Positions 10,266-29,851 of a DNA stretch of 32,000 bases are shown one piece after another. Source of the stretch: Candidatus Saccharibacteria bacterium oral taxon 488. GTDB taxonomy: Bacteria; Patescibacteriota; Saccharimonadia; Saccharimonadales; Saccharimonadaceae. Within the stretch, counting starts at the first letter, position 1, and the number at the start of each line of letters is the position of its first letter. Position numbers and translations under genes: made by a program. The notes under the pieces are model-generated. The model worked only from the letters and a program-made list of their open reading frames with translations, did no database searches and had not been told where the DNA came from. The stretch covers positions 330,001-362,000 of the forward strand of contig CP047921.1 in the NCBI GenBank assembly GCA_010202845.1, in the 5' to 3' direction.

Positions 10266-11072
10266 TTACTTGGCAACTGATGTATTGTCGCGTAATTTGA
10301 CCATGTTTTGGTACACTTCGTCAAAGGTCAGCCCTGATTCGTGGATGAGGCTGGCTAGGTCTTTGCCGACATAGCGGAAGTGCCAGGCTTCGCTGGCGAT
10401 GCCGGTGATTTTTTCCTTGCCCTTCGGATAGCGCAGAATAAAACCGTATTCGTGGGCGTGGGTGGCGAGCCAGCCGGCGGTTTTTGGATCAAGTGCGCAG
10501 TCGCTGAAGCGGGCCTTGCATTTCTCGGAAAAGCTGGTTAAGTCAACCGCTAGGCCCAGCTGATGCTCGCTGTGGCCAGGCTTGGCGACATATTCGTCAG
10601 TGTGGGCGGCGCCGTTTTTGGCGGTGGTTTCAGTGCGGACTTTGGCTTGGGCGGTGCCGGAGCGGTAAGCGCTAGAGACGAGGACCGGCAGCTTGGCTTT
10701 GGTTGCAGCCTGACGTAGTTGCTCCAGTGGCTCTTTAACCATCGGTTGCACGCGCTTATCATCTATCCACGCTGGTGTGCCATCAGTAATATCAGTCAGC
10801 GGCGGCTCAAAGGCTGGGTCGATGCCTTGCTTGCCCGAGACATAAGACCAGATTTTCCCGGTTTGTAAATACTTCCACGACGGAAAGGTCAAGTCGCGAT
10901 TGGTGCGGTCAAGGCGGATGGTGACCGGCTGAAAATTATACAGCGGCGAATTAGCGACCGACGCCGACGTTTGGTTGACGAGCTGCGTGCCGCCATTGAT
11001 CATCAGTAGTGTTAGTGTCGTCCAGGCCGCCAAAACCATGGCCACGACTGCGCGCCCCACCCCGTGCTTCAT
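10266..11072 (-). CDS. D-alanyl-D-alanine carboxypeptidase, peptidase M15B (VanY-like), paralogue 2
   Basis: Motifs SAYRSGTAQ, PGHSEHQLGLAVDL and EAWHFRYVG supply the Zn ligands of VanY/M15B. An N-terminal signal/TM segment is present. Confidence 0.85.
   Translation of the reverse strand: MKHGVGRAVVAMVLAAWTTLTLLMINGGTQLVNQTSASVANSPLYNFQPVTIRLDRTNRDLTFPSWKYLQTGKIWSYVSGKQGIDPAFEPPLTDITDGTPAWIDDKRVQPMVKEPLEQLRQAATKAKLPVLVSSAYRSGTAQAKVRTETTAKNGAAHTDEYVAKPGHSEHQLGLAVDLTSFSEKCKARFSDCALDPKTAGWLATHAHEYGFILRYPKGKEKITGIASEAWHFRYVGKDLASLIHESGLTFDEVYQNMVKLRDNTSVAK
10415..10460 (-). repeat. 46-nt tract 43/46 identical to 11228-11273 (29-nt perfect run) inside the VanY paralogues
   Basis: I aligned the two tracts directly. 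ccttgcccttcggatagcgcagaataaaaccgtattcgtgggcgtg compares with ccttacccttcgggtagcgcagaataaaaccgtattcgtgggcatg. Confidence 0.85.
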
Positions 11073-11957
11073 TTATTGTGTTCCTCGCTGTTTGAGTTTG
11101 GTCATTGCTTCTTCAATATACGACCAAGCCTCCTCCATCGTCAAGCCCGACTGATGCAGAGCGCCCGCTAGTTCCCGCCCGACGTAGCGAAAATGCCATG
11201 GCTCGTATTGATAGCCGGTGATCGATTCCTTACCCTTCGGGTAGCGCAGAATAAAACCGTATTCGTGGGCATGAGCGGCTAGCCATTTGCCGGCGGTGGT
11301 TCGTTCGAAACAATCATCCACCCAGCAGGTTTGATCGGCGCCAGCAAAGTCGACGGCTAGGCCTGATTGGTGTTCGCTGTGGCCGGGGCGCGAGCTAAAG
11401 CGGCTGGCTTCGGCCTCGCCATGTCGGCGGGCGTAGCTGGCAAAGAGTGAGGCTTGGGTGGCGTAACTGCGGTAGCCTGAGCCGACGCGGAGGGTGACGC
11501 CGGCGGCGCGGGCAGCGGCGACTAATTTCTCGAGATCAGGCATGAGGACGGCGCGGAGCGAGCGCTCATCCTGACCGCGGCCGGGTAATGTCGGCACGCT
11601 GACGAGGCGGAGGTCGCTGGGCTGATAGCGAGGATTGGCGAAGGCTCGGGATTTGTTAGCAATTTTCCAGAGATCGGCGTCATCGGCACTGTTGACAATG
11701 CGAGCGGGGATCGGTGTAGCGTTTGGCAGAGCGATGGTAATTGGTGCAGCTGGTGCTGGAGTTTTCGGGCTGTCGGGATCTTTTTCTTTGGGTGTCGGCG
11801 CGGGCTGCTCTTGGCTGATAGGCTGCTGGGCAGTGGTACGCGGCGGGTTGAAATGACGGAGGGTGAAATAAGTCGCTACAGCACTACTGGCGATGATCAG
11901 CACGGCACCCAGGCCAAGGAGCAGCTTACGTTCCCTCAAGCGTTTGGTAATTTTCAT
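11073..11957 (-). CDS. D-alanyl-D-alanine carboxypeptidase, peptidase M15B (VanY-like), paralogue 1
   Basis: Motifs SGYRSYATQ, PGHSEHQSGLAVDF and EPWHFRYVG, plus an N-terminal TM and a Pro-rich linker. Its stop abuts the start of the next paralogue with no gap. Confidence 0.85.
   Translation of the reverse strand: MKITKRLRERKLLLGLGAVLIIASSAVATYFTLRHFNPPRTTAQQPISQEQPAPTPKEKDPDSPKTPAPAAPITIALPNATPIPARIVNSADDADLWKIANKSRAFANPRYQPSDLRLVSVPTLPGRGQDERSLRAVLMPDLEKLVAAARAAGVTLRVGSGYRSYATQASLFASYARRHGEAEASRFSSRPGHSEHQSGLAVDFAGADQTCWVDDCFERTTAGKWLAAHAHEYGFILRYPKGKESITGYQYEPWHFRYVGRELAGALHQSGLTMEEAWSYIEEAMTKLKQRGTQ
11228..11273 (-). repeat. partner of the 10415-10460 tract
   Basis: See 10415-10460. Both tracts encode AHEYGFILRYPKGKE. 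Confidence 0.85.
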
Positions 11958-17792: not shown

Positions 17793-19787
17793 ATGATAGC
17801 CGACATTCACATCACCGAGAAGAGTTTTGGCGACAAGACGTTGATGCGTGACGTCAAGTTTAGCGTGGACGACGGCGAGAAAATTGGCGTGGTCGGTCGC
17901 AATGGCGTTGGTAAGTCGACGCTGTTTGGGGTTTTGGCGGGCACGGATACCGACTACACCGGTGAGGTGATTTTCCGGCGCGGCATCACCGTGGCCAGTA
18001 CGGCGCAGGAGCATCATGGTCTGGGCGATCAGACGGTGCTGAGCTACATTTTGGCGGGGCTACCGGAATATGCGAGCTTAAAGAAAATTATTGATGAATA
18101 TCCCGAGACCATGGGCGATAATATGCGCAAAATCGAGGAGTATACTCAGGCGCTGGAGCGATTTGACCAGAAAGGGTTTTATCAGATTGAGGAGAAGATT
18201 GGGCGGGAGCTTGATAATTTTCAGCTGAGCGGGTGTGGCGAGCGGCCGCTTGGTTCCCTGTCGGGTGGTCAGAAGCGGCTGGTGGAGATCGTGAAGATTA
18301 TGCATGCGGAGGCGCATTTGGCGCTGATTGACGAGCCGACCAATCACATGGATTATGTGGCCAAGCAGCAGTTCATCGACTGGATGAGTTCGCAGCCGCG
18401 CCAGGCCATGCTGATCATCACCCACGACCGCGATGTGCTGGGTCGGGTGGATCGAATTGTCGAACTCAAAGACGGCCGAGCGGTCAGCTACCGCGGTAAT
18501 TATGACGCTTACCTCAAGCAAAACGCTCAGGCGACGGCGGCGGGCATGAATAATTTTGAGCAGGTCGAGAAGCGGATAACCAACCTCAAACAAAAGGTGC
18601 TGGATTATCAGCGGCTGAAGGAAAAGTCGCGCAACCCCGGTACCATCCAGAAGTTTAAGCGGCTGGAAAATGAAGCACGGGCGGAGCTGGCGGAATTATC
18701 AGAGATGGACAAGCCGACATTTTGGATCGATAAGGAGTCGGCTGGCCAGCTTGATTATAAATCGGCTGAGCGCTACGGCAAGTTCAAGGCGCGTAATATT
18801 CGCCTATCGATGAAAGACGCGGCCAGTCGCAGCCAGCATGTGTTGGTGCGGGTTGAGGATGCGGCAGTTGGCGTTGGCGAGCGGATATTGTTTGAAGGGG
18901 TAAATATTGATCTGCGTGAGGGCGAAGCGGTGGAGCTGCGCGGCCGCAATGGCGCTGGCAAGACGACGCTGATTCGGATGTTGCTGGGGCAGCGGCGAGG
19001 TTCGTACTCCAGCCTCTCTGATTCGCGGCAGAATTCGGCTCGCCCGTCTCGCAAACATCTTTCTCTTCAGGCCGGCGCGCCGCCAACTGATTCAGCTGGC
19101 GCTCTTGGCACGCCTTTGCCGGAAAGGCAAAGCCTTCAGAAAAAGAGTTTGACGAGCCAGCTCGAATGCACTCAGAAGAAATCTGAGATGCCACTCGCAT
19201 CCAACGCGTCGACTGCGGCACCTCCTGCGCTGGAGGCTGTGGAGCATTCGCGAATAGCGAGTGCTCCAGCCGAACGCTCGCGTAGTATCTCCAGTGGAGA
19301 TGCAAGCGAAAAGAGTACTCCAGCGCAGGAGCGTGGCGCTGGCGTCACCCCTATCCTCTACTCCGGCAACCTCTTCCTCGACCCGCAGGTGCGGGTGGGC
19401 GTGTACGAGCAAGAAATTGATGAGCGGTATTTGGCGGATCCATTGGAGGCAGCGATCGAGAAATTGTACCTCAGCCGCGACCTGCCGATTTCTGATACCA
19501 AAATTCGCCAATTACTAGCTGATTATCTGTTCACCGAAGCGGATCGGATGACGCCACTGGCGCGCCTGTCGGGTGGTCAGAAGGCACGCTTTCAGATCAT
19601 TGCCATGCTGGCGAATGACCCGCAGCTATTGATTTTGGACGAGCCGACCAACCACCTTGACTTACCGAGCATCGAGGAGTTAGAGACGGCACTGGCGAAA
19701 TATTCTGGCGCCATTTTGTATGTCAGCCACGATAACTATTTCCGCCAAGCAATCGGTGGCGAAGTCGTACAAATCGGTGCAGTATAA
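17793..19787 (+). CDS. ABC-F family ATPase (two ABC cassettes, no TMD) carrying an in-frame insertion of about 118 aa in NBD2
   Basis: Walker A motifs are GRNGVGKST and GRNGAGKTT. Signature motifs are LSGGQKRL and LSGGQKAR. Walker B motifs are LALIDEPTNHMD and LLILDEPTNHLD. An inter-domain linker is present. Low-complexity insert at about 18990-19346. Confidence 0.9.
   Translation: MIADIHITEKSFGDKTLMRDVKFSVDDGEKIGVVGRNGVGKSTLFGVLAGTDTDYTGEVIFRRGITVASTAQEHHGLGDQTVLSYILAGLPEYASLKKIIDEYPETMGDNMRKIEEYTQALERFDQKGFYQIEEKIGRELDNFQLSGCGERPLGSLSGGQKRLVEIVKIMHAEAHLALIDEPTNHMDYVAKQQFIDWMSSQPRQAMLIITHDRDVLGRVDRIVELKDGRAVSYRGNYDAYLKQNAQATAAGMNNFEQVEKRITNLKQKVLDYQRLKEKSRNPGTIQKFKRLENEARAELAELSEMDKPTFWIDKESAGQLDYKSAERYGKFKARNIRLSMKDAASRSQHVLVRVEDAAVGVGERILFEGVNIDLREGEAVELRGRNGAGKTTLIRMLLGQRRGSYSSLSDSRQNSARPSRKHLSLQAGAPPTDSAGALGTPLPERQSLQKKSLTSQLECTQKKSEMPLASNASTAAPPALEAVEHSRIASAPAERSRSISSGDASEKSTPAQERGAGVTPILYSGNLFLDPQVRVGVYEQEIDERYLADPLEAAIEKLYLSRDLPISDTKIRQLLADYLFTEADRMTPLARLSGGQKARFQIIAMLANDPQLLILDEPTNHLDLPSIEELETALAKYSGAILYVSHDNYFRQAIGGEVVQIGAV
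19171..19342 (+). repeat. intragenic hairpin-rich repeat element, copy 1 (in ABC-F, sense orientation)
   Basis: By direct comparison, 19267-19342 is the exact reverse complement of 28908-28983 (76/76). Recognisable homology continues to about 19171, matching about 29082. Internal inverted arms lie at 19222-19235 and 19318-19331. Confidence 0.9.
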
Positions 19788-28597: not shown

Positions 28598-29851
28598 TCA
28601 CATTATATCATAATATTTGTATTTTTCAAGTATCTGGCGGACGTCGTCGGTGCTGGTGGTGTGCATCAACTGTTCGCGCAGTTCCTTGGCGCCATCAAAG
28701 TCGCGGATGTAGATTTTGAAGAAGCGTTTGAGGGTTTCGAAGGGGCGGCCGAGAGTTGGTTGATAGCGGTCAAAGAGATCGAGGTGGTAGTGTAATAAGG
28801 CGATTAGTTCAGTTTTACGGGTGGTAATGGATAGTTCTGCTCCCTCGGAGTGTTCTTTACGGATGGCTTCGCTCGCCTCTCGGACATCGTCAGAAAAGCC
28901 GGGGTCACCAGCGCCACGCTCCTGCGCTGGAGTACTCTTTTCGCTTGCATCTCCACTGGAGATACTACGCGAGCGTTCGGCTGAAACGTCCGCTCCTCGC
29001 GAACGTTTCACAGCCTCCAGCGCAGAAGGTGTCGCTGGCGCTGGTGTATCTGACGTGAGTGGCGTCTCAGAAAAAATCTGGGATTGTCTCGGGTCCCGGA
29101 TTGTTTTATGAGATACCGCTCGAGATGCTCGAAAACAAAACGGATCGCTGAAAATGCCCCGCCCGATCATGACGCCGTTGATGCCGGGATGTTGACGGAC
29201 TAGCTCTAGACCATGGGTTCGGTTGCGGATATCGCCGTTGATAGTTAGTAAAGTTTGTGGGGCGATTTCATCGCGTAGTTTGATGATGTCGTTGATGAGC
29301 TCGTAATGCGCTGGGACTTTACTCATTTCTTTTTTGGTGCGTAGGTGGATGGTTAGGTTGGCGAGGTTTTGCGTGAGTAAGGTGCTAAGCCATTCGCGCC
29401 ATTCGTCGATATAAGTATAGCCCAGCCTGGTTTTAACGCTGACTGGCAATCCAGCAGTTTTAGCAGCGGCAATGGCGGCGACCGCTACGTCGGGCTGGCG
29501 GATCAGTGCCGCTCCCCCGCTTTTGATGGCGGATTTGGCGGGACAACCCATGTTGATGTCAATGCCGTCAAAGCCGAGCTCCATGCAGTGAGCGGCAAAT
29601 TGTTCCATGTCGCCCGGCTCACCGCCCCAGATTTGGGCGACCAGCGGATGCTCATCGTCGGTCTTGACGAGCCGCCCAGCGATGGCCTTGTCGCCAGCGT
29701 GCACCCAGCCAGTTGCATTGGCAAACTCGGTGAAAAACACGTCGGGCGCGCCCGCCTGTTTCACGACATGGCGAAACACCACGTCCGTGACGGCTTCCAT
29801 GGGTGCCAAGATGAAAAATGGCTGCGGTAGATTGTCCCAAAATGATGTCAT
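28598..29851 (-). CDS. dus: tRNA-dihydrouridine synthase (Dus family) carrying an in-frame insertion
   Basis: Motifs are ILAPMEAVTDVVFR, GFDGIDINMGCP, TIHLRTKKE, INGDI and GVMIGRG. A low-complexity insert lies between the TIM barrel (…DPFCF) and the C-terminal helical domain (…ELIALLHYHLDLF). Confidence 0.9.
   Translation of the reverse strand: MTSFWDNLPQPFFILAPMEAVTDVVFRHVVKQAGAPDVFFTEFANATGWVHAGDKAIAGRLVKTDDEHPLVAQIWGGEPGDMEQFAAHCMELGFDGIDINMGCPAKSAIKSGGAALIRQPDVAVAAIAAAKTAGLPVSVKTRLGYTYIDEWREWLSTLLTQNLANLTIHLRTKKEMSKVPAHYELINDIIKLRDEIAPQTLLTINGDIRNRTHGLELVRQHPGINGVMIGRGIFSDPFCFRASRAVSHKTIRDPRQSQIFSETPLTSDTPAPATPSALEAVKRSRGADVSAERSRSISSGDASEKSTPAQERGAGDPGFSDDVREASEAIRKEHSEGAELSITTRKTELIALLHYHLDLFDRYQPTLGRPFETLKRFFKIYIRDFDGAKELREQLMHTTSTDDVRQILEKYKYYDIM
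28908..29082 (-). repeat. intragenic hairpin-rich repeat element, copy 2 (in dus, sense orientation)
   Basis: 28908-28983 is the exact reverse complement of 19267-19342. Homology extends to about 29082. Arms lie at 28919-28932 and 29015-29028 (13/14). Confidence 0.9.

Follow-up and report, generated by a model that had tools for sequence, protein, structure and literature searches.

We analysed a 32,000-nt stretch of the genome of Candidatus Saccharibacteria bacterium oral taxon 488 (contig CP047921.1, positions 330,001 to 362,000; the whole stretch is called the window, and positions are counted from its first letter). Two genes of the window, one for an ABC-F ATPase and the other (dus) for a tRNA-dihydrouridine synthase (Dus), contain copies of the same palindromic element, copy A and copy B respectively (Table 1). 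An initial annotation had singled out an 11-bp hairpin in which the two copies differ with every pair kept. Here the hairpin is shown to be stem-loop I of a palindromic insertion element of ~160 nt with three nested helices and a long terminal inverted repeat. Comparison of 98 copies also shows that the element is fixed in essential genes of oral Saccharibacteria, where it occupies permissive loops, in frame and by all appearances translated.

Structure of the element and the two copies in the window

The unit is closed by a perfect 14-bp inverted repeat (CTCCTGCGCTGGAG and CTCCAGCGCAGGAG in copy A), within which lie stem-loop I, a short helix and stem-loop II (ATCTCC AGT GGAGAT). Folded as RNA, the 146-nt unit reaches −88 kcal/mol in copy A and −84 kcal/mol in copy B (z = −8.5 and −8.4); the z-scores of the opposite strands are −6.6 and −6.5. 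Covariance models of Rfam 15 run on positions 18900–19450 gave chance-level matches only (E = 1.7 or worse, far under the gathering scores).

In the sense of the ABC-F gene the arms of stem-loop I are ggagcattcgc and gcgagtgctcc, with the loop gaata; in the sense of dus (reverse complement of 28983–29009) they are gaaacgttcgc and gcggacgtttc, with the loop gagga. Within these 27 nt the copies differ at eight stem and two loop positions, and 11 of 11 pairs are intact. Pairs 2 and 4 change from G-C to A-U and pair 6 from A-U to G-C, each by a double change, while U·G and U-A are exchanged at pairs 7 and 8, that is, a single wobble is shifted by one pair. Read in the sense of its host gene, each version of the hairpin thus has exactly one U·G wobble. 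The annotated inventory of eight stem differences, three double compensatory changes and two U-A/U·G interconversions is therefore correct. The core next to the hairpin (19268–19343, equal to 28982–28907) is identical over 76 nt. The annotated description is to be corrected in that the 5′ leader upstream of the core differs as well. Both copies are read in the same frame and encode the peptide ..ALEAV(EHSRIASAP / KRSRGADVS)AERSRSISSGDASEKSTPAQERGAG.

The probability that eight random substitutions leave all 11 pairs intact is 2.5e-4. However, all eight observed stem changes are transitions, and under a transition-only null P becomes 0.05; for this reason the two window copies alone are suggestive of compensatory pairing and not decisive.

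Table 1. Positions in the window of the palindromic element, its parts and its two host genes
Feature	Position	Strand	Description
Copy A, palindromic element	19182..19343	+	In frame in ABC-F, aa 464-517: SEMPLASNASTAAPPALEAVEHSRIASAPAERSRSISSGDASEKSTPAQERGAG; inverted repeat; RNA fold z = −8.5
Outer stem 5′ arm (terminal inverted repeat), copy A	19222..19235	+	CTCCTGCGCTGGAG; 100% complementary to 19318-19331
Outer stem 3′ arm, copy A	19318..19331	+	CTCCAGCGCAGGAG
Stem-loop I, allele 'A'	19240..19268	+	Arms 19241-19251/19257-19267; loop 19252-19256; closing U-A 19240/19268
Stem-loop II	19285..19303	+	AGTATCTCC AGT GGAGATGCA region, 8 bp; two basal pairs covary
Copy B, palindromic element	28907..29071	-	In frame in dus (..SETPLTSDTPAPATPSALEAVKRSRGADVSAERSRSISSGDASEKSTPAQERGAG)
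Stem-loop I of copy B, allele 'B'	28982..29010	-	Arms 29009-28999, 28993-28983; loop gagga
Outer stem 3′ arm, copy B	28919..28932	-	93% pairing with 29015-29028; one U·G from CCTTC variant
Outer stem 5′ arm, copy B	29015..29028	-	Inverted repeat with 28919-28932
Host gene 1, ABC-F ATPase, 664 aa	17793..19787	+	Pfam
Host gene 2, tRNA-dihydrouridine synthase, 417 aa	28598..29851	-	Pfam Dus, aa 14-252

Sample of element copies

One genome per species was scanned with both terminal repeats as the query. Among the 16 matches, eight Candidatus Saccharibacteria genomes carry the element; the other eight, in other phyla (one of them a tRNA in Solobacterium), were chance matches and were discarded. Metagenomes were scanned with the pattern CCGAACGCTCGCG-N8-CCAGTGGAG, which lies outside both hairpin I and the outer stem, and yielded 87 stretches with the element. 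In these exact scans of species-representative genomes and metagenomes the element is restricted to Saccharibacteria.

With the window included, the sample comprises 98 copies, among them 88 unique 132-nt versions that form a gap-free alignment (A2). The scan pattern put no constraint on the stem of hairpin I; it fixed columns 57–69 and 78–86 of A2, and invariance in these columns (including the upper part of stem-loop II) is no evidence. An nhmmer search of 830 kb of flanking DNA detected no further diverged copies. A full-length ABC-F query returned over 100 proteins with the insert; the 57-aa insert used as a peptide query gave no match, which reflects a limit of the word index rather than absence.

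Covariation in three helices

Among the 88 unique copies 98.1% of the cells of stem-loop I are paired, as compared with 93.0% after shuffling. None of 500 shuffles reached the observed pairing, none reached the observed covariation score, and slid partners pair in 32–41% of cells. The hairpin is present as 30 haplotypes with double changes at five of 12 pairs, which implies at least six independent double changes. Two of the varying pairs occur as A-U (66 copies), G-C (17) and G·U (4), and as A-U (51), G-C (25), U-A (4) and G·U (4); pair 32-50 occurs as C-G (66), U·G (13) and U-A (9), another pair as G-C (68) and A-U (11), and pair 38-44 as C-G (78), U·G (4) and U-A (4). Double changes of the transversion type, such as A-U to U-A, are present too.

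For the whole fold in alignment A2, standard pairs make up 94.0% of 4312 cells (shuffled mean 88.4%, reached by 0 of 500 shuffles; slid partners, 33–54%). Both-sided changes were found at 18 pairs: 11 of the 23 pairs of the outer helix, five in stem-loop I and two, 72-90 and 73-89, at the base of stem-loop II. Because covariation spans 30 haplotypes of the hairpin and two other helices, a constraint on the stem at the nucleic-acid level is supported by the alignment. The initial annotation would have been contradicted by uncompensated stem changes occurring at the rate seen in unpaired positions. This pattern was looked for and not seen: diversity is 0.189 in paired and 0.219 in unpaired columns, and pairing is nonetheless maintained. 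The observation made on the two window copies is thus confirmed, and the wider sample strengthens it.

The loop does not differ freely, as had been supposed from two copies. It has the form G-A-N-N-A closed by C-G (columns 39–43 of A2), with variation confined to its two central bases; in the 88 copies G39, A40 and A43 show no change or almost none. A40 and A43 are third-codon positions, with A43 constant across six codons that include GGA, ATA and GTA. The conserved GANNA loop may be a recognition motif.

Translation of the element and variability of its peptide

In every genic copy the reading frame is open. A single frame is used in 79 copies, and it is the only one of the three sense frames that is open, whereas all three frames are open on the antisense strand. 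Twelve unique copies in ABC-F are turned round, so that the other strand is the one translated (..SPLEISRERSAETS..); both orientations are represented by intact proteins, with many of the reverse type. Natural deletion variants in ABC-F have lost 96, 30 or 54 nt, all multiples of 3, and these deletions end at stem bases, within the short direct repeats GCG, TCGCG and CTCCAG. Because genic frames are always open and the deletions are multiples of 3, the insert is evidently translated and not removed.

Diversity at codon positions 1, 2 and 3 is 0.244, 0.178 and 0.160. Because third positions are the least variable and not the most, the peptide is apparently free of amino-acid constraint, and the constraint seen in the alignment would not act on it. 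Alleles A and B of the hairpin differ in six of nine residues (EHSRIASAP versus KRSRGADVS) with every base pair kept, and the element read on its two strands gives unrelated peptides. Intergenic copies contain an in-frame TGA, produced by a compensated change from C-G to U-A at the top of the stem, and are still 88–94% paired.

Host genes and insertion sites

All 98 copies reside in five places: the genes for ABC-F, Dus, the ribosome-biogenesis GTPase Der and leucyl-tRNA synthetase (LeuRS), and one intergenic spacer. The element is thus a low-copy family; a 480-kb metagenome contig had a single match. In ABC-F (the window protein and QHU93756.1, from a 'Candidatus Saccharibacteria bacterium oral taxon' genome, have 100% identity) the lineage-specific insert in full covers aa 400–520 (nt 18990–19352), directly past the Walker A helix of the second ATP-binding domain; in a PDB alignment to EttA, aa ~400–570 have no match. 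The insert of Dus (aa 241–346, nt 29131–28814) is located between the end of the TIM-barrel domain and the helical domain, and the alignment to DusB stops at ..FCFRA. In Der the element occupies the loop between GTTRD and DTAG, which has 72–106 residues with the insert versus 16–31 in relatives; in LeuRS it follows RFLNRVW. The intergenic site lies between convergent genes, in the spacer that immediately follows the 3′ end of a RelA/SpoT-like one.

The regions around the element have a variable architecture of their own. In ABC-F the preceding part of the loop (18990–19181, aa 400–463), compared among proteins P0001–P0120, is a mosaic hot spot, with 108 to 186 aa between Walker A and YEQ in strains of at least 84% identity. 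The loop may have an optional 36-nt block (RRGSDSSLSDSR) and a PSRKHL..QSLQKKSLTSQ module, or a Dus-type leader in the place of that module; three proteins (P0065, P0106, P0112) have an unrelated block of ~75 aa there. The upstream ABC-F module (18975–19215) is weakly structured (z = −2.1) and was not counted within the element.

The Dus insert runs past the shared element by ~60 nt on the 5′ side (29131–29072) and ~90 nt on the 3′ side (28906–28814). These extra flanks pair with each other (GTCAGA/TCTGAC and beyond), with z = −7.0 for the whole region, and L038, a distant Dus allele, is without them; in appearance the arrangement is a nested palindrome or one growing outward. In five dus alleles (L017, L046, L047, L065, L098) the leader is the reverse complement of the usual one (GGGTCCCGGATTATTTT versus AAAATAATCCGGGACCC), which suggests a local inversion; these alleles encode ..SQKKSGLALAGPGLFYDDTREMGN.. 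and have a mismatched or decayed hairpin (GGATTGTTCGC/GTAAATACTCC).

Many Der alleles have a second in-frame module of 99 nt (..ATASLSDKSIALRTALPDAFDMEETAGG..) after the element (~2729–2830 in L082), which is also found beside the reverse copies of ABC-F and at the intergenic site. The module, too, forms a hairpin of palindromic sequence (−53.9 kcal/mol; z = −4.7 for the sense strand versus −1.9 for the other) and is probably another family of the same kind. In L100 the intergenic copy (624–755) lies right after the stop codon of the RelA/SpoT-like gene and shares its direction; opposite it is a convergent gene for inorganic pyrophosphatase, and a terminator-like hairpin between the two genes is a possible role.

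Elsewhere in the window, direct repeats with 78–88% identity and a spacing of 807–813 nt (10401–10472/11214–11285 and 10540–10580/11347–11387) were found in two adjacent minus-strand ORFs, 10266–11072 and 11073–11957, which look like tandem paralogues.

Probable exchange of sequence between loci

The stem-loop I alleles 'A' and 'B' are two old alleles, and each of them is found in ABC-F, Dus and Der of different strains. Only rarely is arm A combined with arm B, and such recombinants (L017, L046, L076) are mismatched. The nearest neighbour of a copy is often at a different locus. Three lineages can be distinguished, one made of ABC-F forward, Dus and Der copies, one of intergenic and ABC-F reverse copies, and one of LeuRS copies; within a lineage, distances between loci are no greater than within a locus. 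For instance, the mean difference between ABC-F reverse copies and copies of the intergenic site is 5.3, and the within-group means are 6.1 and 4.5. The ABC-F gene of some strains bears a Dus-type leader (..ASHKTIRDPRQSQIFSE..).

In L035 and L049 the element has the 5′ flank of one host gene on one side and the 3′ flank of a different host gene on the other: Der is joined to ABC-F in one case, a Dus leader to a Der tail in the other. These are either assembly chimeras formed at the 160-nt repeat or real rearrangements.

Strand on which the fold is kept

We call top strand the strand of the element that is sense for the host gene in both window copies. In stem-loop I this strand has 118 G·U cells as against 16 A·C cells, and the overall count in sense copies is 263 to 52; the top strand also folds better than the other strand in 87 of 88 copies (−69.3 versus −58.8 kcal/mol). 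The 12 reverse copies of ABC-F separate the strand of the element from the strand of the message. They keep U·G at pair 35-47 on the top strand, which means a C·A mismatch in the mRNA; their top strand is again better paired (0.940 versus 0.917) and more stable (−54.6 versus −47.8 kcal/mol). The conversion of pair 38-44 from C-G through U·G to U-A took place within the reverse and intergenic lineage, by way of a top-strand U·G. Because the reverse copies keep both the top-strand U·G and the better top-strand fold, the asymmetry follows the element's top strand and not the host mRNA. The annotated conclusion that a fold is conserved on one strand is borne out by the covariation and the excess of G·U; its identification of that strand as the one transcribed into the host mRNA fails on the reverse copies.

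When the singleton variants of the haplotype list were tallied by hand, these rare variants had G·U and A·C at about equal frequency, and the excess of G·U was confined to older, frequent variants. A C-to-T bias on the non-template strand would also yield G·U on the sense strand. GC skew indicates no consistent lagging-strand orientation of the two window copies (n = 2). An RNA and a single-stranded DNA stage leave the same signature, and the folded strand may be either; that the element propagates as RNA, as had been proposed, is shown by nothing in these data, which do not distinguish the two.

Proposed explanation and its alternatives

The explanation that we favour, as somewhat more probable than its alternatives taken together, is that the element is a selfish or neutral palindromic insertion whose top-strand fold is kept by compensatory change and whose copies exchange sequence between loci. 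In such a scheme copies at different loci would trade sequence by gene conversion or recombination, as the mixing of alleles among loci suggests, and the window copies would be identical except for the hairpin block because of this exchange, the hairpin being an old, internally co-adapted allele. Substitution in the stem would be stepwise and compensatory, passing through U·G intermediates such as those seen among the pair states. The object of the constraint would be the element's own top strand, folded as a single strand, and neither the peptide nor specifically the host mRNA. The element would then behave as selfish or neutral DNA of the Rickettsia-palindromic-element type, and it may be tolerated because the loop that it encodes is hydrophilic and unconstrained.

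Several observations weigh against this explanation. Besides the transition-only null for the window copies given above, the counts of covarying pairs and of pair types are not above those of shuffled alignments (39 and 128 of 500 shuffles for the whole fold, 232 and 73 of 500 for the hairpin), and much of the cell-level covariation signal is a few lineages counted repeatedly. The sample is limited to copies matching the 22-base pattern, and decayed copies may be missed; the chimeric contigs L035 and L049 could inflate the apparent exchange between loci. No target-site duplication was visible or definable at the sites compared, no transposase is present within the 32-kb window, and plasmids, phages and viral contigs had no match to the element; its low copy number and the same five sites in all strains give no sign of current movement. 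Der alleles without the element, examined as the shortest close alleles returned by an insert-removed Der query, keep a GAGGAAGCTGTGA remnant and resemble internal deletions, not virgin sites; the 'empty' ABC-F allele L104 is diverged. Finally, the top strand is the transcribed sense strand in five of six combinations of site and orientation, and copies A and B, on opposite strands of a region where GC skew is positive in most intervals, are yet both sense. A role of the fold at the transcript level is thus a live possibility.

The reading of the initial annotation says that a functional RNA structure is selected in the host mRNAs, for instance for stability, processing or translational pausing, or that the element spreads as RNA. 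We regard this as possible, if unlikely. On the top strand many pairs have more G·U than A·C, and at appreciable frequency, which agrees with this reading, as do the sense orientation of the top strand in Dus, Der, LeuRS, forward ABC-F and the RelA 3′ spacer, the sense orientation of both window copies despite their opposite relation to GC skew, and the conserved loop bases G39, A40 and A43, two of them at third-codon positions. Sense insertions predominate even though one sense frame and three antisense frames are open; yet with five or six independent sites only, the argument from orientation is weak, and it is weakened further by the sense peptide being the most hydrophilic among the open frames. 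Against this reading, the 12 reverse ABC-F copies have a C·A mismatch in their mRNA and a fold 7 kcal/mol worse there, the compensation at pair 38-44 in the reverse and intergenic lineage passed through a top-strand U·G, and the recent singletons of the hand tally have no G·U bias. Neither an Rfam match nor a reverse transcriptase or other RNA-based route of spread was seen.

Structural selection is dispensable if template switching or hairpin-templated repair copies one arm onto the other and makes the palindrome self-maintaining. Creation and repair of stems by this process, including multi-base compensatory changes, are documented (PMC8794818); the deletions ending at stem bases and short direct repeats point to hairpin- or repeat-promoted replication errors at this locus, and the inserts resemble nested palindromes. 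Arm copying predicts perfect Watson–Crick stems, however, whereas U·G is found at pair 35-47 in 75 of 88 copies and in all lineages, and the retained wobble is shifted by one pair in allele A. It also predicts no strand asymmetry, being symmetric. Because U·G persists in all lineages and stepwise U·G intermediates are frequent, at several pairs, we rank template switching below selection and hold it to be very unlikely. As to a protein module, a flexible linker copied between genes with an incidental nucleic-acid structure, the constant frame, the hydrophilic Ser/Ala/Glu/Arg-rich peptide and the location in loops or domain junctions are what it would lead one to expect. This idea is close to refuted by the six of nine residues altered between alleles A and B with all base pairs kept, by third codon positions no more variable than the others, by the unrelated peptides of the two strands and by intergenic copies that retain the fold in spite of stop codons.

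Comparison with known elements

By its features the element is, in our assessment, closest to the Rickettsia palindromic elements (RPEs), which are ~105–150 bp long, form a long stem-loop with terminal inverted repeats, occur as translated in-frame fusions in conserved but unrelated protein genes, are regarded as tolerated and not as useful, and have no known transposase (PMC10969869, PMC2229807). The Saccharibacteria element likewise forms one long stem-loop, with a 14-bp perfect terminal repeat, z = −8.5 and 11 covarying outer pairs, and lies in frame in several unrelated conserved genes (ABC-F, Dus, Der, LeuRS). The defining features of the kind are therefore present, and what we would claim is the same kind, not membership of the family. 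The host belongs to an unrelated phylum (Saccharibacteria, Candidate Phyla Radiation), and the likeness claimed is one of features. Other differences from RPEs are five sites as against 44 copies in R. conorii, sites common to all strains with sequence exchanged between them, occupation of the ABC-F site in either orientation, and covariation support for the three-helix fold.

[quoted passage not shown] In common with MITEs the element has ~160 nt, terminal inverted repeats and no internal transposase, its only open frame being that of the host. MITEs have many dispersed copies in each genome and, through recent transposition, sites that are filled in some strains and empty in others; here 98 copies occupy five sites. 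Most copies of Correia/NEMIS, ERIC and YPAL are found between genes, in high number and flanked by TA duplications of the target, and for some of these elements a partner transposase is known; the present element is low-copy and nearly all intragenic, with no duplication visible and no partner found in the window.

In attC integron sites, the ends of IS200/IS605 and REP/RAYT systems, an imperfect hairpin with conserved irregularities is maintained on one strand while the sequence is free to vary. The element may resemble them in mechanism, not in family, by its imperfect one-strand hairpin of variable sequence. PMC3733652 describes the REP heads. Unlike these single-strand recombination systems, the element was seen with no integrase, TnpA or RAYT gene, and its orientation does not follow replication in the window. 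REPs are extragenic imperfect palindromes of only 20–40 nt headed by a conserved GTAG or CGTC. Assignment to REP/RAYT was rejected: copies are intragenic, GTAG precedes stem-loop II in one sublineage only, and columns 70–73 of A2 are variable.

PARCELs, too, are coding DNA with dyad symmetry that is shuffled within and between genomes (PMC2996958). They are tandem 25-residue amphipathic repeats of surface or membrane proteins with a conserved protein motif; the Saccharibacteria element occurs dispersed, as one unit at a time, in housekeeping enzymes of the cytosol, and its peptide is not conserved. Three further classes were considered and rejected. The variable and template repeats of a diversity-generating retroelement do not fit, as the differences between copies A and B are paired transitions at A, G, C and T, not changes at template adenines only. 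An intron is incompatible with genic frames that are always open and indels in multiples of 3, and an intein with an insert of 54 aa and low complexity and with Pfam matches to the hosts' own domains only. A full-text literature search found no paper on such elements in Saccharibacteria. The element is a previously undescribed Saccharibacteria counterpart of in-frame palindromic elements.

Significance

The fullest record to date of translated palindromic repeats within essential genes comes from Rickettsia, and their mode of spread and the reason for the retention of their fold are still unsettled. That oral Saccharibacteria have the same kind of element suggests its recurrence in reduced, host-dependent genomes. 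For the organisms themselves, the inserts make the ABC-F, Dus, Der and LeuRS proteins larger and more diverse; in metagenome assemblies the repeat causes chimeric joins.

The Saccharibacteria element is a tractable case, with clean covariation, both orientations, an untranslated intergenic copy and natural deletion variants. Comparison among copies allows constraints on peptide, mRNA and DNA strand to be told apart, and some of these strains are culturable on their hosts. It seems quite unlikely, but would be consequential, that the three-helix fold with its C(GANNA)G loop and persistent U·G is a functional single-stranded module, be it an RNA motif that a host or element factor reads in transcripts of several essential genes or the recognition hairpin of a strand-specific mobilisation system in the Candidate Phyla Radiation. 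If it were, we would have here a selfish element that is selected as a folded strand while also being translated.

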